32,000 bases of DNA, taken from the NCBI RefSeq assembly GCF_000829235.1, contig NZ_AP012549.1:2490001-2522000 (forward strand), written 5' to 3'. The notes below the pieces were generated by a model that was not told where the DNA came from, did not search any database, and worked only from the letters and a program-made list of their open reading frames with translations. The translations under genes and the position numbers were made by a program. Below are positions 3,272 through 27,968 of this stretch, piece by piece (the stretch's first letter is position 1; the number at the start of each line of letters is the position of its first letter). This stretch comes from a cyanobacterium endosymbiont of Epithemia turgida isolate EtSB Lake Yunoko. Lineage in GTDB: Bacteria; Cyanobacteriota; Cyanobacteriia; Cyanobacteriales; Microcystaceae.

Positions 3272-3737
3272 GTCAAGCAAGTAAAGTTAAAAAAAATAAT
3301 TATGCTGTAGATTTATATTAGTTTTGGGATTATTACCGCTTTTAGCTTGCTTATTATTCTTGGTGAGATTTTTGTTTAACACGCCAAACAAAATACAGGC
3401 AATCACCGAAGGTAAGCTTTCAATGATTGCTTCTCTAACGAATAGAGAATTATTACAAATAGCCTTAAACACTTTAAATCAAGGGAATCAACAAAATGGA
3501 GCCCCAAAATACTGTTGAAACTGATTGTGGACTTTAATACGTCAAAATTAAAGAAGGGATAAAAGATTTTCTAAGTAAAAGCCAGACACTGACGGCACAC
3601 CATACGGAAATCCTAGAGAATGGGAAAAAAATTTAACAGTTTTTGTTATTGTAGCCGACTCTTCTCCTTCAGAATCGCTGTGGGACAAGTAATTAAAGTG
3701 TAGGACGGAGGAGTAATAAGTATGAAAGTAGGAAGCT

Positions 3738-3772
3738 GCCGTACCCTAATTTTACTGAAATTAGGGTACGGC
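3738..3772. repeat. Perfect 15-bp stem / 5-nt loop hairpin inside a locally GC-richer island.
   Basis: gccgtaccctaattt (3738-3752), tactg loop, aaattagggtacggc (3758-3772), exact reverse complements. It is followed by ggggtagagggggcg. There is no adjacent ORF and no U-run on either strand. Confidence 0.6.
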
Positions 3773-4375
3773 GCAAGGGGTAGAGGGGGCGTTATTCCTC
3801 CCAATGCTACCTCAGGTTTTAATTTAGGATTGTTAGGAATAAAATTAATTTTTCCTATTTAAATATAAATTTAAAATGTCTAATAACTTAGACTATTAAT
3901 CGATCTTTTCAAAGCTGAAAATAAATCCTGGTAATGTCTCTTCATTAATCCGGATAGAATATAAAATTTCTCTGAATTTATTAAAAATGTATTCCTCTAT
4001 CATTGACATTTTGTACATAAGTATTAGGATAAGATTTTTTTGACGTGGAATAACTATTTTGTTAAAGCTACAATCCTTATCTCTAGCTTAAAATTAGGTA
4101 GGTTCTCCGCGACGTTATATCTGCCGGCTAGACGTGATCAAAGTACTAAAATTAAAATCAACTAAACCCCTATGCACTAAAGGCAATGTAAAAAAACTGT
4201 CTCAAACTTTTATAAGCAACCTGGGCCTTTGTTTGAAGTCTGGTATATTTTTCAGGGTCTTGTTGAGATAGAAGGGGAGGTAGATTTTGATTAAAAGATC
4301 TAGGCATTAGAGGACTATAGTGAGAGTTATTGCTATTTGGTCCCATCATTTGCGATATACTGAGTAGTTGGCAGT

Positions 4376-5274: not shown

Positions 5275-6013
5275 ATGGATACAATAAACATAATATTCTT
5301 AATATTGCTATTCATAATTTTTTTATGTCGGAATTATTATAAAAGCTTGATAGCTTGGGAAGGTTTATTTTTACACCTAATGTAGATCATTCAATAAAAT
5401 TATGCACTGCTCCTGAACTACAAGAGGCTTATCGACAGTCTAACTACTAAGTGTGCGACAGCACAATTGTTCAACACGCCTCTAAATTTTTTGGAACTCC
5501 TCTTATAGAAAAATTTTCTGGCTTGGACTTATTTCCTGCTTTTGATAAAAAATAGAAATAATTCAAGTATATAGAAATAATTCAAGTATTAAGATATATT
5601 TACTAGGGTCTAGAAAAGATATTGCCCAACAAGCTCAAAATAAAATCAATCAAAAACTGAGGCGTGAAATTATTGTTGATTGTTATTCTCCTGTTTTTGA
5701 GAAAGATGATAAGGAATACGAGAATATCCTAGAAAAAATTCGCACCTCAGTAGCAACAGTTCTAGTTGTCGTTTTAGGGGCTCTTACACAGGAAAAGTGG
5801 ATTAGCAAATACAAAAAACAACTATCCAATGTTATAATTTTTCTAGCAATTGCAGCAACTATTGATTTTAAAATAGTTTATGAACTCCGTTCACCAAAAT
5901 GGATTAGTGAGGTGCTACTAGTATTAGTATACCGTCTTCTTTCTGAACCTAGACGTTTTTAAAAGTGGTATTTAGTTGAATCTATTCCTTTCTTTTGATT
6001 AATTTTTAAATAA
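5275..6013 (+). pseudogene. Decayed WecG/TagA/CpsF-family glycosyltransferase.
   Basis: 5364-5450 translates FIFTPNVDHSIKLCTAPELQEAYRQSNY*, continuing VCDSTIVQHASKFFGTPLIEKFSGLDLFPAFDKK*. 5594-5962 translates IYLLGSRKDIAQQAQNKINQKL..VVLGALTQEKWISKY..AATIDFKIVYELRSPKWISEVLLVLVYRLLSEPRRF*, then KWYLVESIPFF*LIFK*. These match remembered family blocks TPNVDH, GAPKQEKWI, GATIDF..G...RAP.W, GLEWLYRLL.EP.R.WKRY. The N- and C-terminal halves are in different frames with several in-frame stops. Confidence 0.8.
5552..5589 (+). repeat. Perfect 19-bp tandem duplication (2 copies) inside the glycosyltransferase pseudogene.
   Basis: atagaaataattcaagtat occurs at 5552-5570 and again at 5571-5589. Confidence 0.95.
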
Positions 6014-8009: not shown

Positions 8010-10271
8010 ATGGAATGGGATCGGCGGACTTTTCTAAAGACCTTGCTCACCTGGGGAATTAGTCAAGCAGGGCTTGAATGGTTCTCTAGGCAACCAAAAA
8101 TTAAACGTTACTATCAAACCTTAGCTACGCCAACCCCCCGTAAACTGGCATTGTTGGTAGGTATTGATGACTATGGTAGTCATTACAAGTTGAAAGGATG
8201 TGTTACTGATGTTGAGCGACAAAGAGAATTACTAATTTATCGCTTTGGGTTTGCCCCTAAAGATATCTTAACCTTAACGGAACAACAGGGAACTCGTGAA
8301 AGAATAGAACGGGCTTTCACCGAACATCTAATTCAACAGGCCAAAGCAGGTGATGTAGTGCTGTTTCACTTTAGTGGCTATGGCAATTATGTCAAGGAAA
8401 ATATTCATGATGTTTTCCCTCTCTCGTCGTCAACGCGAAAACGGGGTCTAGTTCCCAAAGATGGAATTTTATTAACTAAAGACACTCCTACAACCAACGA
8501 TTTTCTTGAAGAAACGCTCCTACTGTTAGGTCAATCTTTAGCCACTGATAAACTAACCATGGTCTTGGATACCAGTCATCAGTATTTAGGGAGAGAACTC
8601 GAAGGAAATCTACAAGGACGTTCCTTTCCATATGAGGCTCAACAACCTAGTCCAGAAGAAATGACCTTTCAAACTCAATTAAAAGAAACGCTCAAAGCTA
8701 AAAATGTCCAAGCTAAACCGTCACAAATAGTTGGCACTCTGCTAAGGGCTGCTCAACACCAGCAAGTAGCCACTGAAATCATGGGTAATGGCTTTAGTAC
8801 CGGTTTATTCACCTATCTCTTAACCCAATATCTCTGGCAAGCAACCCCCACTAGTAAAACTATAGTTTTACTAGAAAATTCCAGTGAACATATGTTTTCC
8901 ATCAGGGGACAACAACAACAACCTCAACTCCAAGCGAACCAAAAACAGCCTCTTTTTACCTACTATCTACTTCCAGTTACCCCCCAAGGAGCTGAGGGGG
9001 TAATTATACAAGTAGAAGAAAAAACTACCGCCACCATCAAACTAACTGGACTGCCTCTATCGGCCATGCAACACTACGAACTTAATTCTTGCTTTAAAGT
9101 GGTTGGCTCCCAATCCTTACACCCCATTATTGTCCAATTGTATTTCCGTGACGGACTAACTGGTAAGGTTCGACTGCTCGAGATACCACAAGACCAAACT
9201 GACATATCTCCCCTACAAAAGGGACAATTGCTTCAAGAAACCTTGCGTGTGATTCCCAAAACTCTAGGACTTACTGTTGCCCTCGATAAAAACTTAGAGA
9301 GAATTGAAAGGGTTGATGCGACGAGTGCTTTTGCTTCAATGAAAATCGTCTCGTCAGTCATTACAGCAGGAGAATCAGGAGCTGATTGCGTCTTAGGACG
9401 ACAACAAAAGACATTAATTCTTGATGAGAGAGATTCATCTAAATTAGAAACAGAAGGAGGCTATGGACTCTTTTTACAAGGGGGTATCCCCGTTCCTAAT
9501 ACCTTCGGTCAATCAGGAGAAGCCATTAAATCGGCTGTCGAAAGGCTTCAACCCGCCTTGAAAAAACTCTTGGCTATCAAATGGTGGCGGCTTACTATTA
9601 ATGAAGGTTCTTCGGGATTGGGGCTAGGGGTAACCCTCAAAAATCTTGATCAAGATCCTTCCCTAATGCTACGACGACAAACTCTACGCAAACTATCGTC
9701 GTTGAAAACATCTTTACCCCTAACTCAGGCTGATTTCTTACCGTCGACAAGTTTTTCTCCCAATTCTCTACAACTCCAGTATTTACCCCAACTACCCCAA
9801 GGAAGTCGTTTCCAATGTCAATTGGAAAATCGAGGTGATTGTCATATCTATTACCTAATTTTAGGAGTAGATGCCAGTGGGCAAACCACCGCCTATTTAC
9901 CTCCTCAACAAAAAAATCAAACTCAACAGACAGCCCACTTATCCCCAGGAGAAAGCCGACTTGTTCCATTCTCTTCTCGAGGACTTGACTGGACATTAGC
10001 TAGTAGTCAGGGATGGGGACAAATGATGATTGTCGGTTCTAAATTCCCTTTTATAAAAACTTTAGAAACCCTAGCAGAGTTTCCAGGATTTAAACTTGAC
10101 CAGGGGCAAATATTTACTCTAGAGGAGCCACTCAAGATCACACAATCACTCTTAGGAGACTTAAATACTTCTAGAGCTTTTTCAACTGAATTAGCTGCAA
10201 CACTCACCGATAGCTATGCTCTTGATAGCAGTACTTGGAGCACTTTAAGTATTGTTTATCAAGTTATTTAG
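8010..10271 (+). CDS. Caspase-fold (peptidase C14, orthocaspase-like) protein with a substituted catalytic dyad (pseudo-orthocaspase), 753 aa. It has an N-terminal twin-arginine-like motif and a long C-terminal region.
   Basis: This is a track ORF. The p20-like block reads LALLVGIDDYGSHYKLKGCVTDVERQRELLIYRFGF...GDVVLFHFSGYGNYV...LTMVLDTSHQY. The canonical HFSGHG His is Tyr124 (tat 8379-8381). The canonical D-x-C-H Cys is Ser189 (agt 8574-8576). Residues 4-10 DRRTFLK match the Tat consensus (S/T)RRxFLK. The C-terminal stretch GDCHIYYLILGVDASGQTTAYLPP resembles a DUF4384-type domain (from memory). Confidence 0.8.
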   Translation: MEWDRRTFLKTLLTWGISQAGLEWFSRQPKIKRYYQTLATPTPRKLALLVGIDDYGSHYKLKGCVTDVERQRELLIYRFGFAPKDILTLTEQQGTRERIERAFTEHLIQQAKAGDVVLFHFSGYGNYVKENIHDVFPLSSSTRKRGLVPKDGILLTKDTPTTNDFLEETLLLLGQSLATDKLTMVLDTSHQYLGRELEGNLQGRSFPYEAQQPSPEEMTFQTQLKETLKAKNVQAKPSQIVGTLLRAAQHQQVATEIMGNGFSTGLFTYLLTQYLWQATPTSKTIVLLENSSEHMFSIRGQQQQPQLQANQKQPLFTYYLLPVTPQGAEGVIIQVEEKTTATIKLTGLPLSAMQHYELNSCFKVVGSQSLHPIIVQLYFRDGLTGKVRLLEIPQDQTDISPLQKGQLLQETLRVIPKTLGLTVALDKNLERIERVDATSAFASMKIVSSVITAGESGADCVLGRQQKTLILDERDSSKLETEGGYGLFLQGGIPVPNTFGQSGEAIKSAVERLQPALKKLLAIKWWRLTINEGSSGLGLGVTLKNLDQDPSLMLRRQTLRKLSSLKTSLPLTQADFLPSTSFSPNSLQLQYLPQLPQGSRFQCQLENRGDCHIYYLILGVDASGQTTAYLPPQQKNQTQQTAHLSPGESRLVPFSSRGLDWTLASSQGWGQMMIVGSKFPFIKTLETLAEFPGFKLDQGQIFTLEEPLKITQSLLGDLNTSRAFSTELAATLTDSYALDSSTWSTLSIVYQVI

Positions 10272-10787
10272 GAAATGACTTAAATTTCAGATAAAATAGT
10301 TAATTAAACTTACAACAATCTAGGAATCGCTATTGATTTTATGCCCGATTACCATTAATTGATTAACTTTTTCAAAGTTTTAAAACGGCAAACAATACTC
10401 ACTTTCCTAGGTATCGAAATGATGAGGTAAGAGAGATTATAATTTATATTTTAAATTTACTGAGAAATAAATATTTTTGAAACAATAAATATTAGGAAGA
10501 ATTAATGCTGACAATATATTTAATTTTATCTATCTTTAAAAGAGTAGTCATAGAAAAAAAATTATTTTTTTCCATTCTCAGCTTATTGTTTAGAACAGGC
10601 GGTTCACATTGAAGACTGAGAGAAATAGCTATTCCCCGACTGACCATTTACCGATAATATAGAAAATGCTCACTCCAATTAATTAATGTTAATTAGTGAC
10701 ACAGACCTTAGGAAATGTATTATCCGCCTCATTTCCTCCCCATGACGACACCCTCGGAAGGGGTACCTAGCGGTAAATTAAGGATTC

Positions 10788-16030: not shown

Positions 16031-16229
16031 AAACTATTAGAGTAAGAGTTAAGAGTTAACATTCGTGTAAGTCTGTGTCTAAAACATTATCCCCGATTTT
16101 AGTTCTGCGTCAAATAATTTGAATCTAAGACTTGAATTATAAATTTTAAAAAATAAGGCTAGTTTTTAAAATTTATACGAAGTCCAAAATATGTTTTAAA
16201 ACAACTTTAAATTTTAGCCAAGAAGTTAC

Positions 16230-17383
16230 TGCCTAATTACTGATGATCACGGTACAATAGCAGTTACTCTATATCTTAATTTATTTATTCGGTCATTGAT
16301 AATTAGGGATCAACTCTTCGCTATCAGTGATTACATTGTTTTTCTAACCTCATCAGCCATCTATGGTATCTTTTTTTGTACTAAAGTTGAACCTATAATG
16401 GGGTTTACAGGACTTACCAACTTCGGAACAGTGGCATTTATGACCTTGAGATCTTAGACCACAGCTCTCTTAAGTATTAAAGGCTTTCCTATTATTCCTG
16501 CTGTCTTAATTGGGGTGATTTTTCAGCAATTCTAGAGTTAGGAATTTTTCTATCGACACTGTCTTTAGGAGAAAACTATTTAGCAATTGTTACTATTGGC
16601 ACATCTGAATTAATTTGTCTAAATTGCTAATCATGAAGAATGGCTGATGGATTGGATTTTGATGTTAAAACCTATCCCATTGCCTTAGATTTTAAAGCAA
16701 ATTTATTTACTAATTTTATTTTGCTCATTGTGTTAAAGTTATTAACGATGGCGACAACATAAATAAATATAATAAAAAAGTATTAAACATAAAAAAACTA
16801 TGAGTTTGATTATCTCGGGAGTTCTAACTATATCATTGATTATTTTAGTTTATATTCCTAAGACTGTTGCTATTTCCAACTAGACGTACAAAGCTGGATT
16901 GATGGTGTTAACTTTATTGACATTAGCCATTGTTTATACAGGATTTTTTAGTTCATCCCCCTTGGGTACGCATTTTAAAAACAATTAGAGAGGATGAAAA
17001 CATTGCCTAAACGTTAGGAAAGAATATCTTATTGTATAAATTGGAATCATTCATGTTAAAGAAGTGATTTTAAGGATTTTTCTTTGCTTAGCAATTAGCC
17101 ACTATTTTTCTAAACAATTCCGAACTATTATTAACTTTTAATACTTGGAATATTGTTGTTTGAGGAGCTACAATTAAGTAACGCAGTAGTAATTTCCGTG
17201 TAAACTATTTTGTGTACTTATGATTCTATAACTAGTTTTAGTTTACCTCAATTAACAATGTTTATTCAGAGTCAGGTGGGGACATTTAATGTCATGTTTA
17301 CTAGCTTAATTTTAATGATATTAATAGTCTTGTAACCTCAAGTAATTTCGGGAAAAAAAGAAGAACTTCTTCTAGAAAAATGA
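16230..17383 (+). pseudogene. Decayed LivM/NatD/UrtC-type ABC transporter permease (branched-chain amino acid or urea family).
   Basis: 16362-16457 translates YGIFFCTKVEPIMGFTGLTNFGTVAFMTLRS*, then TTALLSIKGFPIIPAVLIGVIF (family block: GLNL..G.TGL.NFGH.AFM.LGAYTTALL). About 16966-17070 translates VRILKTIREDENIA*TLGKNILLYKLESFMLKK* (family block: GR.L.AIREDE.AA.ALG.N...YKL..F). 17282-17383 translates TFNVMFTSLILMILIVL*PQVISGKKEELLLEK* (family C-terminus ..RPQG..G). There are multiple stops and at least one frameshift. Overall length is close to an intact gene. Confidence 0.75.
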
Positions 17384-17606: not shown

Positions 17607-18866
17607 TCACATTATTTCAGTGAAAAAATCAATTGTTTCTTTTAAAGCTAAAATAAACTTGTCAATTTCCTCAAAGGTATTATAAAAATATAAACTAACT
17701 CTGGCACTTCCTGAGGCATTAAATAGGCGATGTAAGGGTTGAGTACAATGGTCTCCTGACCGAATGGAAATTCCTTCATTATCTAATAAAGTTGATAAGT
17801 CACTCCCATGAATTCCTTCGACATTAAAAGAAGCTAATGCTGCTCTTCTTTTACCGTCTAAATTGGATATAGAGCCATAAATCCGTACCTTAGGAATTTC
17901 TGTTAAGTTTTTAAATAAATAGGTAGTCAATTCCTCTTCATAAAGATGGATTTTATCCAATCCAATAGTTGTTAAATAATCTACCGCTGCTCCTAAGGCT
18001 ATCACTTCACCAACAGCAGGGGTTCCTGCTTCAAATTTGTGGGGTAGTTTTCCATAGGTAAATCTCTCAAGAAATACCTCTCCTATCATTTCTCCTCCAC
18101 CAAGAAAGGGAGGCATCTCTTCCAAAACTTTTTTCTTACCATAAAGAAACCCAATTCCCGTCGGAGCACACATTTTATGTCCACTAGCCACCAACCAATC
18201 ACAGCCAATTTGCTGTACATCAATAGATAAATGAGGCACACTTTGACAAGCATCAATTAACACCTTTGCTCCCACTTGATGGGCTGCAGAAGTAATTTCT
18301 TTTACTGGGTTAATACAGCCCAACGTATTGGAAACATGGACGATAGCTACTAATTTTGTCTTACGCGATAACAAGGATTGAAAATGATCTAAATCCAATT
18401 CTTCTTGCTCAGTTAAAAAGACATATTTGATTACTGCCCCTGTTTTTTTAGCTATTATTTGCCAGGGAACAATATTACTATGGTGTTCCATGACGGAAAT
18501 AATAATTTCATCTCCCGGTTTTAAGTTGCTTAAACCCCAACTATAAGCGACTAAATTAATAGCTTCTGTAGCATTACGAGTAAAAATAAGCTCTTGAGAT
18601 GATTGGGAATTAATGAATTTTGCCACCTTGTCCCTCGCCCCTTCATATGCTTCTGTTGCCCGCACACTTAAACTATGCGCTCCTCGATGAACATTGGCGT
18701 TATCTTTTTCATAGTAATGACGCAGAGTATCAAGGACAATCAAAGGTTTTTGGGAAGTAGCAGCACTGTCGAGATAAATTAAGGACTTTCCGTTAATTTT
18801 TTGATGTAAGATTGGAAAATCAGAACGAACTTTAGCAGCAAGAGTTTTTTCTTTTACAGAAATCAT
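17607..18866 (-). CDS. sufS: Cysteine desulfurase SufS (class V aminotransferase, group II), 419 aa.
   Basis: This is a track ORF. It has the PLP-lysine context [12 protein letters not shown] and the catalytic Cys loop RSGDHCTQP. It is last in a sufBCDS arrangement. Confidence 0.95.
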
Positions 18867-18953
18867 GACAAATTCAAACGTTAGAAGTTAGTTGGAGGCT
18901 TGAACATCTTGAAATGTTTCTACTATAAGTTATTAAGGTAATTAATAATTTAT

Positions 18954-20321
18954 TTAGGATGCTAAGGTACGACAGGCGACACATTGAGTGAGTCTTTGAC
19001 GTAGAGACTTAAGAGGAAGTCGATCCAAGATTTCGGTGGCGAAGGCGTCAATTAAGAGGTTACGGGCGTCATTTTGACTTAACCCACGACTTTGTAAATA
19101 AAAAAGTTCATCAGATTTTAATTGACTAATAGTTGCCCCGTGAGAACATTTAACATTGTCTGCAGTAATTTGCAATTCGGGTTTAGTATTAACACGGGCC
19201 TTTGAAGACAGCAACAAATTCCGATTTAATTGGGTTGCATTGGTTAATTGTGCTGGTTTTGGAACGAATATTTTACCGTTAAATATACCATGGCCATAAT
19301 CATCAATGATATATTTGTGTAATTGATGGATTGTTCCATAGGGACAGTTAAGATAGACTGCACTGTGAGTATCCGAAATCTGTAAACTTCCGACCATTGT
19401 TAAACTACTCAGGTGAGTTTCAGCTTGCTTTCCTTGTTGAAAAACCTTGAGAGTGTGGCGAGAGAGTTTTGCACCTAGACTAATATCATTACAAATATAA
19501 CGACTTTCTTTATTTTGGATAATCGCGGTTTTTCCAATGTGAAAGCTATCTCCTAATTCTCGTTGAATTCGACTATGATTAATGTGGGCATTGTCTTCCA
19601 GAAATATCTCTGTTACCCCATTCACTAAATAAGGTTTGTTCTCTACAATATCAGAGCATTCTTGGGTAGTAGCCGTATAGTTCTCTACCAAAGTAATATT
19701 TGAATTTGTTTCGGCTACAATTAAAACACGAGGTTGAATTAAATTATAAGAATCTGTAGGAACAGATATAAAGAGTAAATTAACAGGAATATCGACAACA
19801 ATGTTTGGATCGACCCAAATGATGGCAACATCATGAAAATATGCCGTATTTATCAAGGCAAAAAAGTCTTTTTCCCCATTATTTTGGGAAAAATAATGAA
19901 TAACCTTGGCTTTCTTAGATTCGGGAAGTCCCATTAAATCTCCTACATATACCCCTTCAGGTAAAGCAGATAAATTTGATAATTCAGGGACATACTCTCC
20001 ATTAACAAAAATAAGCCGACTCTCTTGGGTTTCGGGTAAGATAAAAGAGGAAAAATCATCTAGATTAATGGTATCAGCAGATTTAGCTGGTTTAAACTGA
20101 ATATTGGACAATTCAGACAAGTCGGTAAATCTCCAATCTTCATCCTGTTTTGTCGGGAAGTTCAATGTCCTTGACTCAGATATTGCATCCTCCCGCAATT
20201 TTGATAAAAATTGCAGCTCGCCCACTGCTTCCTGGGGCTGACATTTCTCTGATAATCCCAACAGAATATTCTCCCAAATTTGGTTGATACGTACACTTTT
20301 TTTTATGGTCGATGTTGTCAT
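18954..20321 (-). CDS. sufD: Fe-S cluster assembly protein SufD, 455 aa.
   Basis: This is a track ORF. The C-terminal SufB/SufD beta-helix blocks are present (NTKPELQITADNVKCSHGATISQL, ELFYLQSRGL). It lies between sufC and sufS. Confidence 0.92.
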   Translation of the reverse strand: MTTSTIKKSVRINQIWENILLGLSEKCQPQEAVGELQFLSKLREDAISESRTLNFPTKQDEDWRFTDLSELSNIQFKPAKSADTINLDDFSSFILPETQESRLIFVNGEYVPELSNLSALPEGVYVGDLMGLPESKKAKVIHYFSQNNGEKDFFALINTAYFHDVAIIWVDPNIVVDIPVNLLFISVPTDSYNLIQPRVLIVAETNSNITLVENYTATTQECSDIVENKPYLVNGVTEIFLEDNAHINHSRIQRELGDSFHIGKTAIIQNKESRYICNDISLGAKLSRHTLKVFQQGKQAETHLSSLTMVGSLQISDTHSAVYLNCPYGTIHQLHKYIIDDYGHGIFNGKIFVPKPAQLTNATQLNRNLLLSSKARVNTKPELQITADNVKCSHGATISQLKSDELFYLQSRGLSQNDARNLLIDAFATEILDRLPLKSLRQRLTQCVACRTLAS

Positions 20322-20385
20322 ATAATCACTTCCCTTATGAAAGATTCAGATATGGGATAACTTATTAAGTTGTTGAGGGATACTT

Positions 20386-21156
20386 CTAAGCGTTAGTCAA
20401 CAGGGTTTCTTCGACAAAGTCATAACCGCTTTCTTCAAGTTCAAGGGCTAAGTCTTTTCCCCCCGTCGTCACAATTCGTCCATTGTGCATTACGTGGATA
20501 TACTGAGGTTCGATGTAGTTGAGTAACCTTTGGTAGTGGGTAATCAACAAAAAAGCGTTCTCATCAGTGGCTAATTTATTGACACCATTAGCAACAATTC
20601 TTAATGCATCGATATCCAGTCCAGAATCAATCTCATCTAAAATACCTAGGGTAGGTTCTAACAAAGCCATCTGTAAAATTTCATTGCGTTTTTTTTCTCC
20701 CCCAGAAAACCCTTCGTTTAAACTTCTCTCCAAAAAGCTAGGGTTCATCTTGACAACATCTAACTTTTTTTCTACTAAGTCTTCAAAATCAAAGGTGTCA
20801 ATTTCCTCTAGCCCTTGATATTTTCGATGGGCATTGTAAGCCACCCTCAGGAAATTTAAATTACTTACCCCTGGAATTTCTAAAGGATACTGAAAAGCCA
20901 GAAAAATTCCCATATTCGCCCGTTCAGTTGGACTTTTACCGATAATTTCTTCCCCTTTATAAATTATATTTCCACCAGTTATTTCATAATCAGGATGTCC
21001 CGCTAACACTTTTGATAGAGTACTTTTGCCAGACCCATTTCTTCCCATAATCGCATGTATTTCTCCTGCTTTTATTTCTAGGCTAACACCTTTTAGAATA
21101 GGATTTCCTTCAACATTAACTGTTAAATTTTGAACTGATAAGATAACTTTACTCAT
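20386..21156 (-). CDS. sufC: Fe-S cluster assembly ATPase SufC, 256 aa.
   Basis: This is a track ORF. It has Walker [13 protein letters not shown] signature FSGGEKKR, Walker [13 protein letters not shown] and the H-loop ITHY. Confidence 0.97.
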
Positions 21157-21232
21157 TGATTTTTGTAATAATTAACAACTAGACTTTATGTGTTCTGAAC
21201 TTGAATTAAGGTGGAGATTGTCTATCCTAAGC

Positions 21233-22699
21233 TTAGCCGACAGTTTTTTCTAATTTCAGACCTAGAAGTCTATCAGCCTCGGCAGCGAATTCCATCGGCA
21301 ACTTACTCAAGACATCTTGGCAAAAACCACTCACTAACATAGAGACAGCATCTTCTTCAGAAATCCCTCGTTGAGCAAAGTAGAATAATTGGTCTTGTCC
21401 AATTTTAGAGGTTGAAGCTTCATGTTCTATCGTAGAAGTATTGTTATTTGCCTGAATGTAAGGAAAGGTATTAGCTTCAGCATTATCTCCAATTAACATT
21501 GAATCACATTGGGAGTAATTTCTTGAGCCTGTAGCTTTTCGTCCCATTTTTACTAATCCACGGTAACTATTTTTAGAACCTCCTGCAGAAATACCCTTAG
21601 AAATAATGGTACTACGAGTATTTTTGCCAATATGGAGCATTTTCGTTCCTGTATCTGCCTGCTGTTTATTATTAGTGAGGGCAATGGAATAAAATTCTCC
21701 AACCGAATTATCACCCACTAAGAGACAACTTGGATATTTCCAAGTAATAGCAGAACCTGTTTCTACCTGAGTCCAAGAAATCTTAGAATTAACCCCTTTA
21801 CATAAACCTCGCTTAGTGACGAAGTTATAGATTCCTCCTTGACCATTTTCATTCCCTGCGTACCAATTTTGGACAGTAGAATATTTAATATCAGCATTAT
21901 CTAAAGCCACTAACTCTACCACAGCTGCATGAAGTTGATTGTTGTCATACATCGGTGCCGTACACCCTTCCAGATAGCTAACAGAAGCTTCTTCTTCAGC
22001 TACAATTAATGTCCGCTCAAACTGCCCCGTATCTCCGCTGTTAATCCGAAAATAAGTAGATAGTTCCATAGGGCATTTAACCCCTTTGGGAATAAACACA
22101 AAGGACCCATCACTAAAAACTGCTGCATTGAGAGCAGCAAAGAAATTATCATTAGCTGGAACTACTGAGCCGATATATTTTAGAACCAAATCGGGATGTT
22201 CTTGTAAAGCTTCTGAAATAGAACAAAAAATAACCCCAGATTCAGCTAATTTTTCTTTAAAAGTTGTTGCTACAGAAACGCTATCAAAAATAGCATCCAC
22301 TGCTACGTTTCCTAATCGTTTTTGTTCAGATAGAGGAATACCTAACTTCTCAAAAGTTTCAAGTAAAGTCGGGTCAACTTCATCAAGACTGCCTAATTTT
22401 TTTTTCTTTTGTTTAGGGGCAGAATAACAAATAATATTCTGATAGTCAATAGGCGGATAAGTGACATGAGACCAAGTTGGTTCTGTCATCTTTTGCCATT
22501 GTCTATAAGCTTTTAGGCGAAAAGATAACATAAAGTTCGGTTCTTTTTTTTTCGCAGAAATCAGGCGAATAACATCCTCATTAATACCATGAGGGATCTT
22601 CTCGGACTCTATATCGGTAACAAACCCATATTTATAGGGTTGATTGACCAGAAGCTTAACTGATGTATCATTCATAAGTTGTGTGTTCTTCGTTTCCAT
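21233..22699 (-). CDS. sufB: Fe-S cluster assembly scaffold SufB, 488 aa.
   Basis: This is a track ORF. It has conserved SufB blocks ([49 protein letters not shown]). Confidence 0.97.
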
Positions 22700-22932
22700 T
22701 TAATTTAATAATTTCTCTTAGTATATCTAAAGAGTTGCCAGCTTCAAGTGTTGATAAACTTACCTCACTTGGAAGCAGATGTTTTAGGTCTCTCAATTCA
22801 TATCGTCAAAAGCGCGCTTTAATTACATGTGGTCGATAGCAACGAGTTTAGATAGAGAAGTTCTCTCTCAAAAGTCTTTAGGTTCATTAAAACAATTTTT
22901 ATATTGGTCAACTCTATTCTACAATAGAATAG

Positions 22933-22946
22933 CAACGTGATTGTTG
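22933..22946. promoter_or_regulatory. SufR-type operator box CAAC-N6-GTTG.
   Basis: caac gtgatt gttg at 22933-22946 in the sufB/sufR divergent region. The motif form is as I recall it for the cyanobacterial SufR repressor. It lies between a minus-strand TTGACA (22950..22945) and a minus-strand TATTGT (22926..22921, 18-nt spacer). A related half-site, atagcaacg, also occurs at 22836-22844 and 22929-22937. Confidence 0.6.
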
Positions 22947-22994
22947 TCAAAGTCACATTCAAACAAAATTTGAATGTGACTTTGACAACAATCA
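22938..22994. repeat. Perfect 57-bp palindrome (26-bp arms, 5-nt spacer caaaa) in the sufB/sufR intergenic region.
   Basis: I checked it base by base: tgattgttgtcaaagtcacattcaaa (22938-22963) is the exact reverse complement of tttgaatgtgactttgacaacaatca (22969-22994). Each arm carries a consensus -35 hexamer TTGACA facing outward: 22982-22987 on plus toward sufR, 22950..22945 on minus toward sufB. A smaller dyad, ctattcta-caa-tagaatag, sits just upstream at 22914-22932. Confidence 0.9.
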
Positions 22995-23085
22995 TCAGGA
23001 ATAAAACCATAATGATTAAGATATTCCTAGTGTTTCTATACCACTGCTTATCTCAGTCACACTTAATAAGCCAGTAACCGCAACG

Positions 23086-23742
23086 ATGACTATTATTGAG
23101 CCCTCTTCAACTAAAGAAGATATTCTGAACTATTTGCTTAGATATGGTAAAGCCAAGGCTTTTGAATTAGCCCAAGTTTTGAAAATCACACCTCAAGCAA
23201 CTCGCCGTCATCTTAAAGACTTGGAAACTGAGGACTTAATTGAACATCAATCTCAACAAGTTGGGTTAGGAAGGCCTCAATATATATATCATCTTAGTAA
23301 ACAAGGACGTGATCACTTCCCTAATCGCTATGGAGAATTTGCGGTTTCTTTCCTCAAGACTCTCACTGAAACGGTAGGGGAACAAAAGGTAGGAGAAGTT
23401 TTACGCAAACAATGGAAACGTAAAGCTCAAGACTATCGCCAGCGCATTGGCAATGGAACCCTTGATGAAAGAATGAATAAATTAGTTAAATTACGGCAAG
23501 AAGAAGGTTATATGGCAGAAATACACTTATTTAATCCTAAAAATAGTTCTCAATCCTTAAAAGAAGAGTATATTTTAGCAGAGCATCATTGTGCAATTTC
23601 TGAAGTAGCTGAATCTTACCCCACAGTTTGCGGTTACGAACTAGAAATGTTTACCGAAATTTTACCTGATTGTACTGTTGAAAGAACTCACTCGATTAAT
23701 GAAGGAGAACACAATTGTAAATATTTAATTAAAGCTAACTAA
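23086..23742 (+). CDS. sufR: SufR, iron-sulfur cluster biosynthesis transcriptional repressor (DeoR/ArsR-like wHTH plus [4Fe-4S] binding C-terminus), 218 aa.
   Basis: This is a track ORF, divergent from sufBCDS. It has an N-terminal wHTH (ELAQVLKITPQATRRHLKDLE). The C-terminal Cys spacing C-x12-C-x13-C-x14-C is intact (HHCAISEVAESYPTVCGYELEMFTEILPDCTVERTHSINEGEHNC). Confidence 0.92.
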   Translation: MTIIEPSSTKEDILNYLLRYGKAKAFELAQVLKITPQATRRHLKDLETEDLIEHQSQQVGLGRPQYIYHLSKQGRDHFPNRYGEFAVSFLKTLTETVGEQKVGEVLRKQWKRKAQDYRQRIGNGTLDERMNKLVKLRQEEGYMAEIHLFNPKNSSQSLKEEYILAEHHCAISEVAESYPTVCGYELEMFTEILPDCTVERTHSINEGEHNCKYLIKAN

Positions 23743-24298: not shown

Positions 24299-25444
24299 TT
24301 TCGGTTCCGTTGCCAAAAGGTTTGAAAGTGACAATTATAATATGCCAATCAAACTTTTTGAAGTGTTAGTTATTTTATTAACTTTTTCATTAGCCTGTTA
24401 TTTTCGACTATTTATACCAATTTCCTGAAGTTTAGTTGCATATTATCTGTAGAAGTCAATGACCATTGATTCCTACAAGATTAGCATCTTTAGTCCAGGT
24501 TGATAAGAATGCAATTAGATGTTCTGCTTGTATTAATCAACTATCCTTATTCAGGATTTTTTTCTTTTTAAATTTTAAAAATAGATCGGATATAAGCCTT
24601 ATTTTGATATTGGTTAATTACTTTAGATTGCTTATTATGCTCACGGTTAATGAAATTTCTTACAAGGTCTTTTAGCCACTTGTACCGGTTTTCTAGCACT
24701 TAGCATGAATTATCAAGTATCTCCTCTACCATAAACGGACTAATATTAAGTACTTATATTCTTACTTAGAGCTTAGTATAAGGTGAGTTCAACTTCCAAA
24801 GAGATAGATTTTTCTTGTCCTCAATTATTAAACAAGCAAAGATAAACTCTCGTTGCAGGTTTAAAAGAAATAGCAAAATTAGTTCCTTTTTCATCCTAAC
24901 TTGCTCATAAAGTATAGTAATTTTTGGGCAAAAATTTGATGTTTTTTGGTAAGTTTGTCTCGATTTCAATAAAAACTTGCTCAGTTCTGGTATGAGTTAA
25001 ACTTTAGAAAGTAGAAAAGTTAAAGACTTAACGATTTTTTATAATTACAATATGACATCTTGGAATATCAGTTGTTTATTTTTTAAATTAGCATTAAAAT
25101 CCTTTCCTAAACTTTCTGAACATTCTATTTTTCCAATAAAGCGACGGAAAAATGGTATAAGACTCTCTCAAAATATGAGGTATATACTAGAAAAATATAG
25201 TAATTGCTAATCATTTATTGCCGCGACTTGCATAAGTGACTTAAGTGAAGATATTTTCACACTAGCTGTTTCATAGGCTAGGTATTTTTATTAACTAAAT
25301 GGATTAGAAAATAAGAAACAACGATGATTGCGGTGATGTTAGCTTGATGTCTAGAAAAAATAACTAGATTCTCTCGATATTATCTGATTATTTTTAGGGG
25401 AATGTAATTTTTTTTCGAAAGATAGATAAGTTTTATTTATTAAT

Positions 25445-25479
25445 TACTAATAATATAAATCAAATTTATATTATTAGTA
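25445..25479. repeat. AT-only 16-bp inverted repeat with 3-nt spacer in the gene-free tract.
   Basis: tactaataatataaat (25445-25460), caa, atttatattattagta (25464-25479), exact reverse complements. Confidence 0.85.
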
Positions 25480-26912
25480 GTGCAGTCAATGTTATTTTTA
25501 AATTAAATTTTTTTAAACTAAACAGTTTAACTTATATTATAAAGTGCTCAACTAAATTTAATATTAATGAATAATATTCTAAATAGAGCAAGACTGACTA
25601 TCAGTCATTATTAGATTTTCAATAAAATAAGAAAAGTTTAATTCGGCAATAAATAGACACAATAGCAGCTGATATTTATTGTAGTCTAATTAATAGAAAA
25701 CTTTATTAAAATAATGAATTAACCATTACAAATATTCCTTAAGCATAAAAAACTGTCTATTCCAAAATAAATTTTTGTCAAATCAGATACAATAAATTTA
25801 AGAATATATTTACAGTTTTTAGTATTAAAGTTATTGTAATTAAAAACATAATTGTATCATTATACCATTTTAAGCTGTTGTATTTTTTGGGTTAATTTAT
25901 TAATTTTTAAAACCCGCTTAAAACTGGATTAATTCGTTTATAATTAACGATACAATAACCTATTTTAACCACGAAAAAGATGAATATAGATAGTTAAAAT
26001 TTATAGTTGATTGAGATAATAAATTCTTTTGTTTACTTTGTTAAAATTAAAAATTATTTAATTTGAGTCCATGGGTATAAATTGTAATATTTATTTTTTA
26101 ATTTAATCAAATTTATTTATATTCTATCTATAAAAAAAATAAACTATAAGTGTTTTTAAAATGAAAACACTTAATTAGTGTTAACTAAATACTTTAAATT
26201 AAAACTATAATGATGTATTTTAGCAAGTATTGTGTGCAAATCTTATCAAGATTATTTTCTATTATTATGTTTACTTTGATTGAATTGATATTAATCAAAA
26301 ATATATATTATCCTATAATTTAAATTTATTTTTTAAAAAATATAAATATTTTTTAAAATTTTATGTTTTTTCTATAGAAAATAAAGTACAGAAAAATATA
26401 CTTAATTGTATTAGTTAACACTTAACATAGTTTTTTATAAATCCTAAGATTATGTTAATCTTAGCTATATTTTACTAATTCAAATATAGGGTTATTGACG
26501 TTAATCATAAAAATTTTTTATTAATAAACACTAAAATAGTGACATAAATAAATAAATGAGTTTGAAAAAAATTAGCTAAGATAAATTATTCTAATTACAC
26601 TAATAAAAGTGTTTATAAAATTACTTATTTTATGGTTTATATTATGTGTGTAAAGTAATTTAAATTATCATCTTATTAGGTATTCATACCATAATCTCCT
26701 AATTGTTTAGAATAAATCACCTAGCTCACTTTTTGCTATCAAATAAAAAGGACAGTTAATTTATACAAATAAGTTATAACTCTTAAGAATATAAAAGTAA
26801 CCGGCTCCCCCTATTTCATCAATTGATGTGCTGGAACTTCCCTAGTATAGAATAGGTCGTCTTTAGTCTAAAAGTATAATTGCTGTTTGTAAAGATTCAA
26901 GGAGTATAGTCG

Positions 26913-27968
26913 ATGGTCAAATTACGGGTAGGGTTATTGTTCGGGGGACGATCAGGAGAACATGAAGTTTCTATCAAGTCTGCAAAGGCAATCGCAACTG
27001 CCTTAAAGACTGCAGAAAACTACCAAAAATACGAGGTATTTCCTGTATATATTCAAAAAAATGGAGTTTGGCGAGCAGGAAATACCGCACAACAGATACT
27101 CGATCAAGAAACTCCCTTACGCTGTAAAGATGCAACCACACAACAATTATGGCAATTTCCACCCCAAGTGAGTGAAGTAGATGTTTGGTTTCCCATTCTT
27201 CACGGACCAAATGGCGAAGACGGTACGATACAAGGGTTATTGACCTTAATGCAAACTCCTTTTGTAGGGAGCGGGGTTTTAGGATCATCCGTAGGCATGG
27301 ATAAGATTGCCATGAAAATGATCTTCGCTCAGGTAGGATTACCCCAAGTTGAATATATTGCGCTAGACCGAGCTGATATCTGGTCTAATCCCTCTGTTTT
27401 TCCCAAACTTTGTGACAAAATTGAAAAAGCTATAACTTATCCTTGTTTTGTAAAGCCTGCTAACCTAGGGTCATCTGTAGGAATTGCTAAAGTGCGATCA
27501 CGTTCAGAACTTAAAGCCGCCTTGGATGATGCAGCAGGTTATGACAGACGCATTGTGGTTGAAACAGGAGTAACAGCTAGAGAAGTTGAATGTGCGGTTT
27601 TTGGCAATGAAAACCCCAAAGCGTCGGTGATTGGGGAAATTACTTATAATAGTGATTTTTACGATTATGAGGCGAAATATACAGGTGGTAAGGCGCAATT
27701 ATGTATTCCTGCTCAACTTCCTGACTCCATTACTATTCAAATTCAAGAAATGGCTGTGCTTGCGTTTGCTGCAGTAGATGGGGCAGGATTAGCTCGGGTA
27801 GACTTTTTTTATATAGAAGATAGCCAAGAAGTGTTTGTCAATGAAATTAACACCCTTCCAGGGTTTACTATTTTTAGTATGTATCCCCAACTGTGGAAAG
27901 CAACTGGAGTTTCTTTCCCTGAATTAGTCGATCAATTAATTCAATTAGCATTAGGAAAAAATAATTGA
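26913..27968 (+). CDS. ddl: D-alanine--D-alanine ligase, 351 aa.
   Basis: This is a track ORF. The N-terminus [19 protein letters not shown], the ATP-grasp blocks ([22 protein letters not shown]) and the length are typical of Ddl. AAGGAG at 26899-26904 lies 8 nt before the ATG. Confidence 0.95.

Follow-up and report, generated by a model that had tools for sequence, protein, structure and literature searches.

We examined a window of 32,000 nucleotides (contig NZ_AP012549.1, positions 2,490,001 to 2,522,000; assembly GCF_000829235.1) from the cyanobacterial endosymbiont of Epithemia turgida, isolate EtSB Lake Yunoko, and in particular a gene for a caspase-fold protein at 8010..10271 on the plus strand (coordinates are those of the window unless another genome is named). 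The reading frame starts with ATG, encodes 753 amino acids followed by a stop codon, and has no internal stop. It is the longest open reading frame (ORF) in the window, the runner-up encoding 488 amino acids. An initial annotation, made from the letters of the sequence, had called it intact, 753 residues long and the longest of the window, and both this description and its coordinates are exact.

The protein can be divided into seven parts. An N-terminal extension (residues 1-43; 8010..8138) precedes a caspase/hemoglobinase-fold domain (residues 44-311; 8139..8942), which is followed by a small beta-rich domain (residues ~325-416; 8982..9257) and an alpha/beta domain (residues ~421-560; 9270..9689). 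A poorly conserved and probably disordered linker (residues 561-594; 9690..9791) then leads to a DUF4384 beta-sandwich (residues 595-678; 9792..10043) and to a C-terminal alpha/beta segment (residues 679-753; 10044..10268) that ends in a conserved SxVYQV motif. Two minus-strand ORFs lie antisense within the gene (9637-9996, 119 amino acids; 10007-10207, 66 amino acids); nothing supports them, and we take them to be chance ORFs.

The caspase domain is well defined by both sequence and structure. The Pfam family PF00656 (Peptidase_C14) matches with 67.6 bits (cutoff 21.4; E = 1.8e-18) over profile positions 1-228 of 233. An AlphaFold2 model built from 59 homologues has a predicted local distance difference test score (pLDDT) of 81 and a predicted TM-score of 0.84, and in the caspase domain pLDDT is mostly >85. 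Searched with Foldseek, the model matches the metacaspases AtMC9, AtMC4, and Yca1 together with MALT1 and caspase-9, at E values from 2e-13 to 1e-4; the best matches are metacaspases 9 and 4 (E = 2e-13, TM-score of 0.62 on the target). As to a p10 subdomain, Foldseek aligns ~330 columns with metacaspases that consist of p20 and p10, and almost all of the C14 profile is covered by the Pfam match; an alignment of residues 241-277 with the AtMC9 p10 region has a score that is not significant. The NCBIfam family caspase_w_EACC1 was also considered for the whole protein and rejected, the score of 22 bits being far below the cutoff of 140.

The two catalytic residues of this fold are both replaced, as the initial annotation had claimed from the sequence blocks HFSGYG and LDTSHQ. 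The first block places Tyr124 (codon 8379..8381) at the catalytic His: it falls under the His of HYSGHG in AtMC4 and AtMC9, by phmmer and with the family profile, and under the corresponding residue of TbMCA2. The second places Ser189 (codon 8574..8576) at the catalytic Cys. When a profile of residues 112-315 is compared with TbMCA2 (entry 4afr), "vlDtSy" lies under "vFDCAH," which after correction for a 20-residue tag offset corresponds to Asp211, Cys212, residue 213, and His214 of TbMCA2, the His of SGHG being His158. Ser189 aligns with residue 213, which is Ala in the entry and the catalytic Cys in the wild type. The metacaspase alignments place no other His or Cys in catalytic register.

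The replacement is a property of the family. We counted the residue pair at positions 124 and 189, by alignment, in 231 full-length representatives with the C-terminal module. The pair is Tyr/Ser in 190 of the 231 and Tyr/Gly in 14; Leu/Ser and Phe/Ser occur seven times each, Leu/Gly and Tyr/Cys three times each, Cys/Ser, His/Ser, and Tyr/Ala twice each, and Met/Ser once. A His/Cys pair is found in none of the 231. Position 124 is Tyr in 209 representatives and otherwise Leu, Phe, Cys, His, or Met (18 with Leu, Phe, or Met); position 189 is Ser in 209, Gly in 17, Cys in three, and Ala in two, and the 121 closest homologues all have Ser there.

Two Asp residues are invariant: Asp67 of GCVTDV (8208..8210; 230/230), which aligns with the GC(V/I)NDV motif of AtMC4 and AtMC9, and Asp187 of LDTS (8568..8570; 231/231), which aligns with Asp211 of TbMCA2. 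His120 and Ser122 are likewise invariant. The Asp pair has been assigned to the S1 pocket, which receives a basic residue (PMC6426788), so both are putative S1-pocket residues here. Judged by these alignments, the protein belongs to the fold family yet, with the dyad gone, not an active C14 peptidase, and binding without cleavage would be the simplest reading of a kept Asp pair next to a lost dyad.

The homologues, 41-91% identical over the full length, are cyanobacterial "caspase family proteins." The closest come from two endosymbionts of Rhopalodia, those of R. musculus (91%) and R. sterrenbergii (90%), and from Cyanobacterium sp. uoEpiScrs1 (82%); a draft genome (GCA_002110465.1, contig NEED01000069.1; here L007) has an orthologue that is 70% identical, and more distant proteins occur in Rippkaea orientalis PCC 8801 (54%), Crocosphaera (~49%), and UCYN-A (43%). 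The excerpted rows of a published orthologue table (PMC12903740) place sll0148 (SyOC), ETSB-1738, KPI85-03305, and ucynA-08070 in a single row. Within the same excerpt, proteins of 753 amino acids are given only for E. turgida (ETSB-1738) and E. adnata (KPI85-03305), ETSB-1738 stands between icd (ETSB-1737) and acpP (ETSB-1739), KPI85-03305 likewise has icd and acpP as neighbours, as does the window gene, and the gene is present in all rhopalodian endosymbionts and in UCYN-A. From its similarity to the Rippkaea, Crocosphaera, and UCYN-A proteins and from these table rows, the window protein is the orthologue of SyOC/sll0148, and the family that the initial annotation had named, the Tyr/Ser (YS) pseudo-orthocaspases, was the right one. 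Homology, gene order, and the length of 753 residues fit a spheroid body (diazoplast) as the source of the window, most likely that of E. turgida or E. adnata.

The family itself has been described. YS pseudo-orthocaspases are found in nearly all cyanobacteria, though not in Gloeobacter, Prochlorococcus, or Cyanobium; their acidic specificity pocket is conserved, they are extended at the N-terminus by a segment whose RR and AxA are "characteristic for a TAT signal," and a role in photosynthesis or in thylakoid biogenesis has been proposed for them (Klemencic et al. 2019, PMC6426788). DUF4384 has been reported in pseudo-orthocaspases as well (PMC8283722, PMC7475262). The family, its YS dyad, the RR/AxA N-terminus, and the DUF4384 link were thus published between 2019 and 2021, and the protein is not new in kind. 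The pseudo-orthocaspase papers (PMC6426788, PMC8283722, PMC7475262, PMC7889975) make no mention of UCYN-A or of spheroid bodies, we found no literature that combines "orthocaspase" with "UCYN-A," and caspases are absent from the main text of the papers on spheroid bodies and diazoplasts that we checked (including PMC5638926 and PMC12377750).

With the characterised YS pseudo-orthocaspases (SyOC, that is sll0148, PMC7889975; SYNPCC7002_A0101) the window protein shares domain order, length, the Asp pair of the pocket, DUF4384, and an N-terminal extension of ~40 residues with RR and an AxA-like motif, here T-L-A. SyOC itself has a Tyr/Gly dyad, whereas the window protein has Tyr/Ser, and the cell that houses the window protein differs from the hosts of SyOC in having neither photosystems nor chlorophyll and in having lost the sll0149-like downstream neighbour. 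The active orthocaspases and metacaspases (MaOC1; AtMC4, AtMC9, Yca1, and TbMCA2) have the same fold, the same acidic pocket residues, and the same sequence blocks around the dyad, where HYSGHG corresponds to HFSGYG and DSCH or DCCH to LDTSH. Unlike them, the present family has no His-Cys pair but has a putative export signal and a large C-terminal module. The same Tyr/Ser replacement occurs in TbMCA4 of Trypanosoma brucei (cited in PMC6426788), which like cFLIP(L) is a pseudo-caspase acting without proteolysis. TbMCA4 is processed by TbMCA3 and cFLIP(L) dimerises with caspase-8, whereas no active partner is evident here; the window protein also probably resides in another compartment, the lumen, and has no close sequence kinship to either beyond the fold. 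The MALT1 paracaspase (caspase-Ig3) also has a caspase domain directly followed by a beta-sandwich, and Foldseek aligns 360-447 columns (E = 1e-10), but MALT1 is an active eukaryotic Cys protease and at 15-19% identity the likeness is architectural only.

Purifying selection acts on the gene in several endosymbiont lineages that are independent of one another and whose genomes otherwise show decay. We calculated dN/dS (the ratio of nonsynonymous to synonymous divergence; Nei-Gojobori method) from the coding DNA of the window gene and six orthologues, namely those of four further endosymbionts (L002, L003, L005, and L006), of R. orientalis PCC 8801 (L004), and of L007, whose gene order and intact neighbours match those of Rippkaea. 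Across all 21 pairs dN/dS is 0.12-0.20, which is near the values of the controls: 0.08-0.16 for icd, 0.05-0.11 for fabF, and 0.08-0.19 for a Gate-family transporter. Bootstrap 95% limits for four pairs span 0.09-0.25, and dS among the endosymbionts is 0.3-0.7 and so unsaturated. A 59-sequence alignment of the family has 69 invariant positions, and neither the window protein nor any orthologue departs from them. These values, in a family without a His-Cys pair, bear out the proposal of selection on a non-proteolytic function, and the comparison with free-living relatives gave ratios far below 1. That the protein is a YS pseudo-orthocaspase, and one maintained by purifying selection, we regard as close to certain.

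By domain, dN/dS is 0.15 in the caspase domain, 0.13 in residues 312-560, 0.26 in the linker, and 0.17 in DUF4384 and the C-terminus. It is highest, 0.31, in the 43 N-terminal codons, where dN and dS are both very low. The synonymous divergence of these first 43 codons (8010-8138) among five endosymbiont lineages is 0.11, compared with 0.45-0.58 in the rest of the gene; a constraint on the 5' end of the mRNA might explain this, or the small sample.

The region behind the caspase domain, which had been estimated at about 500 uncharacterised residues, comprises ~440 (residues 312-753). It is conserved throughout the family, an example being the invariant IERVDATSAF (residues 432-441) of the alpha/beta domain, around which pLDDT is >90. 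Modelled alone, the C-terminal 436 residues have a pLDDT of 82, and the AlphaFold2 models show a beta domain, an alpha/beta domain, the DUF4384 beta-sandwich behind its disordered linker, and a final alpha/beta piece. The strands of the beta domain appear in both models, and the domain has no Pfam match. In the linker, pLDDT falls to 33-42 and column conservation to 0.15; in the final segment, conservation is 0.6-0.77 and pLDDT mostly >85. A DUF4384-like segment, suggested as possible at the outset, is borne out at threshold: PF14326 scores 27.0 bits on the whole protein, which equals its cutoff of 27, and 29.7 bits on residues 564-753 alone, so the assignment is borderline. Pfam scans of C-terminal sub-fragments found DUF4384 alone.

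Structural searches of this region say little about its function. Against the PDB, the best Foldseek match of the C-terminal part has E = 1.8e-3, and the matches are generic beta-barrels and Ig-like folds: the beta domain (~325-416) is weakly similar to the N-terminal beta-barrel of an F1-ATPase subunit (E ~2e-3) and the DUF4384 region to the Ig-like fold of RhoGDI (E = 7e-3). For the alpha/beta domain (421-560), neither Pfam nor Foldseek against the PDB gave a relative. Searched against 1.84 billion cluster representatives, the C-terminal part retrieves 521 proteins, 212 of them at E <=1e-30, and nearly all of the 521 are 650-870 amino acids long with the module starting at about residue 300-340. 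From these matches the C-terminal module seems to occur only behind this caspase domain.

We next consider where the protein acts. Its N-terminus, MEWDRRTFLK, contains the near match to the twin-arginine translocation (Tat) consensus that the initial annotation had pointed out: D-R-R-T-F-L-K agrees with S/T-R-R-x-F-L-K at six of seven positions. R5, R6, and L9 are invariant; the Arg pair (codons 8022..8027) is present in all 213 family representatives that have an N-terminus, and RR, F, and L are conserved family-wide. Residues 1-43 have a pLDDT <50 and are nearly identical among the endosymbionts. An uncharged 12-mer, TLLTWGISQAGL, follows the motif, and T-L-A stands just before the caspase domain at residues 37-39, a site that reads A-L-A or T-L-A in most of the family. 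In distant members the N-terminus, of which MGLNRRTFLQKAGLGLLALGAS is one example, exceeds the threshold of the curated Tat model TIGR01409, with scores of 17.7-19.8 (cutoff 16.7).

Experimental data exist for distant homologues. A0101, the sll0148 homologue of Synechococcus PCC 7002, ranked eleventh, with an enrichment of 7.64, among proteins labelled by the lumenal fusion PsbU-APEX2 and was never seen with cytoplasmic APEX2, and sll0148 had earlier been found in thylakoid fractions (PMC7880944). According to the excerpted table (PMC12903740), all rhopalodian endosymbionts have a TatA/E gene (ETSB-1011, KPI85-09015) as well as LepB1 and PetC1, the Rieske protein that depends on Tat.

Several observations weigh against export of the window protein. 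The N-termini of the query, Crocosphaera, and UCYN-A are matched by neither TIGR01409 nor PF10518, although these profiles are very short and a miss is weak evidence; Rippkaea and the other endosymbionts belong to the same unmatched clade, in which the hydrophobic part of the signal is shorter than in other members. The uncharged stretch TLLTWGISQAGL is just 12 residues long, and its best 12-residue hydropathy window reaches 0.88, compared with 1.2-1.4 in distant members. T-L-A lies ~15 residues past this stretch, which is far for signal peptidase, and what points to the lumen is proximity labelling only, of a distant homologue. For the claim of an exported pseudo-protease speak the invariant RR and the distant members that pass TIGR01409, whereas the protein's own N-terminus, with its short and weakly hydrophobic stretch, fails the Tat models. 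Export is likely for the family, and export of the window protein by a putative Tat signal is probable.

The same facts lend some substance to another location, in the cytoplasm or on the cytoplasmic face of a membrane, with the RR segment serving in this clade as a conserved helix, packed against the caspase domain or bound to a partner. The unmatched profiles, the weak hydrophobic stretch, and the distance to the AxA-like site would fit such a protein, and in PMC6426788 the region went unrecognised by motif-prediction software and was modelled as a helix behind the p20 domain. Yet the lumenal label reached the PCC 7002 homologue while the cytoplasmic control gave no signal, RR, F, and L are kept family-wide at the very positions that form a model-passing Tat signal in other members, and the 43 residues barely differ among the endosymbionts. 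We consider a cytoplasmic location unlikely.

The surroundings of the gene are those of a genome in decay. We searched the window by tblastn with orthologues from less reduced relatives and found an MFS/GPH sugar transporter pseudogene (922-2142) with 13 stops, an FKBP isomerase pseudogene (3311-3844) with eight, a WecG pseudogene (5600-5983) with one, and an ABC permease pseudogene (16200-17353) with >15; all four genes are intact in less reduced relatives. To these is added a thioredoxin-TPR (Trx-TPR) remnant of 37 residues (10409..10519, plus strand), a tblastn match with two stops. The neighbouring accessory genes are thus dead, as had been stated from the sequence. For the sugar transporter, the excerpted table (PMC12903740) marks GlcH as broken in EtSB and EaSB. 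The other intact genes of the window are housekeeping genes: icd, acpP, fabF, sufBCDS, ddl, hisG, and a transketolase-like subunit.

The window and the endosymbiont genomes share the order icd - caspase - acpP - fabF; in the free-living arrangement, seen in L004 and L007, it is sat - caspase - DUF6930/DUF7309 - hypothetical - Trx-TPR. The Trx-TPR remnant marks the loss of three downstream genes (the sll0149-like gene, the hypothetical, and Trx-TPR), which are marked "No-RE" in the published table as excerpted (PMC12903740). The first of the three encodes a DUF6930/DUF7309 protein of ~540 amino acids on the same strand, 42 to ~220 bp after the caspase gene, in Rippkaea, L007, and L006. It is intact in these genomes, at 12179-13819 of L004, 12453-14099 of L007, and 12452-14071 of L006, the last being an endosymbiont genome of ~3.1 Mb that keeps it; a remnant of 62 amino acids is left in L005 (12626-12814), and in our window it is gone (10272-10787). 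In the rows of PMC12903740 this partner appears as Cyan8802-0575 = cce_4656 = sll0149 and is listed as absent in the six tabulated rhopalodian endosymbionts and in UCYN-A; the pair sll0148-sll0149 is therefore conserved from Synechocystis to Crocosphaera. The gene neighbourhood was considered as a clue to function and set aside, the only conserved partner being lost here. A scan for promoters and terminators around the gene gave nothing above shuffled background.

Some further features of the locus may be mentioned. In L007, the neighbouring FKBP, sat, DUF6930/7309, Trx-TPR, and methyltransferase genes are all intact, and a DDE transposase is also present; of the genomes in our data, it may be the free-living one that is most closely related to the endosymbionts. 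The sufS-sufD-sufC-sufB cluster of the window is intact on the minus strand (17607-23742), with a divergent winged-helix regulator (ArsR-type, SufR-like) at 23086-23742; iron-sulfur cluster assembly is fully retained, as expected of a nitrogen fixer. Two stretches, 25001-27000 and 1001-2000, have a G+C content of 22-25% and no ORF of at least 100 amino acids, compared with 38-48% G+C in the intact genes, and are probably former genes in far-advanced decay.

The host cell makes this orthologue an unusual member of its family. Spheroid bodies have no functional genes for photosystems I and II and no chlorophyll fluorescence but have kept thylakoid membranes (PMC5638926, PMC12377750), and UCYN-A is without photosystem II. 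Both photosystems are gone from the spheroid-body lineage, as are chlorophyll synthesis and RuBisCO, and hundreds of further genes are being lost. Since the gene is kept under selection in these endosymbionts, while it is absent from the photosynthetic Prochlorococcus, Cyanobium, and Gloeobacter, the protein is separated from the photosystems. The case argues against a photosynthesis role for the family; the "thylakoid" half of the published hypothesis stands.

The explanation that we favour is an exported, non-catalytic pseudo-orthocaspase that is tied to the thylakoid but not to the photosystems, and we give it as a whole a probability of about 0.65. By analogy with the PCC 7002 homologue, an N-terminal twin-arginine signal would direct the newly made protein, already folded, into the thylakoid lumen. 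There the retained pocket would bind an Arg- or Lys-bearing segment of a protein or peptide without proteolysis, and the beta-rich C-terminal domains would add contacts, so that the protein may serve as a scaffold, an assembly factor, or a substrate trap. The sll0149-like neighbour, and any active orthocaspase partner encoded nearby, would be dispensable. Since the thylakoids of the host have a respiratory chain and cytochrome b6f but neither photosystems nor chlorophyll, the function would concern the lumen or membrane of the thylakoid as such and neither photosystem I nor II. The chances of the lumenal, non-catalytic binding mechanism seem slightly better than even. A more specific version, a general thylakoid-lumen factor unrelated to the photosystems that would, for example, hold exported proteins by their Arg/Lys segments while the respiratory chain and cytochrome b6f are assembled or checked for quality, is a tentative suggestion to which we would give clearly less than even odds. 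Besides the doubts about the N-terminus, two points count against the favoured explanation: the C-terminal domains have no informative structural relatives, and the normal growth and better H2O2 tolerance of the Synechocystis sll0148 knock-out (PMC7889975) do not suggest a part in assembly.

The same mutant underlies a regulatory reading, proposed for SyOC, in which the protein promotes cell death or modulates the stress response and would be kept because it lowers oxidative-stress tolerance or culls the population. For it speak the better tolerance of the deletion mutant and the down-regulation of the gene by H2O2. This is nonetheless one phenotype, in one distant species and with no mechanism, and a gene whose loss aids survival under stress would be expected to disappear quickly from a decaying genome and not to show a dN/dS of ~0.15. 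We think it improbable that this is why the gene persists, although the reading is a physiological one and is compatible with an exported, non-catalytic binding protein rather than exclusive of it.

The protein might also still be an enzyme, a serine hydrolase or transferase on a caspase fold in which Ser189 is the nucleophile and Tyr124, His190, or His120 assists. Tyr124 and Ser189 are more conserved than would be expected for a mere replacement of the dyad, with YS in 190 of the 231 representatives and Ser in every one of the closest homologues, and the substrate pocket is intact. But position 190 is Tyr or Phe in most members, and since Gly or Ala at position 189 (19 representatives, the SyOC type YG among them) and Leu, Phe, or Met at position 124 are found in proteins that are otherwise conserved, a shared Ser-based chemistry is unlikely. 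Elsewhere in the protein these variants show the same degree of conservation, so the family function does not depend on a Ser nucleophile, and we rate catalysis as very improbable. Finally, a pseudogene in waiting, whose function is lost but which has yet to acquire a stop or frameshift, could be imagined in a decaying genome with at least five pseudogenes or remnants in 32 kb and for a gene whose Synechocystis orthologue is dispensable in culture, but it is refuted by the low dN/dS (upper bootstrap limits <=0.25, five endosymbiont lineages, dS of 0.3-0.7), with which the 69 intact invariant residues and the intact gene in the six tabulated rhopalodian endosymbionts and UCYN-A (in the excerpt of PMC12903740), as well as in further endosymbiont genomes that we examined, agree.

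Taken together, the initial annotation was correct in what it observed and essentially right in its interpretation. For the family, the informative part of the case is its non-photosynthetic host, which that annotation had not recognised and which amounts to a natural test of the function that has been proposed. It narrows the candidate roles to those that outlast photosynthesis, in the thylakoid lumen or membrane, in respiration, or in the control of stress, and it shows that the sll0149-like partner and the catalytic dyad are dispensable. This is a useful constraint for a small field and of modest added value, since no new kind of system is involved. If the protein is indeed a general lumen factor, it would belong to a small set of proteins without a known function that no nitrogen-fixing cyanobacterial endosymbiont can do without, UCYN-A (the nitroplast) included, and the endosymbionts on the one side and Prochlorococcus, Cyanobium, and Gloeobacter on the other would uncouple it from photosynthesis in both directions.

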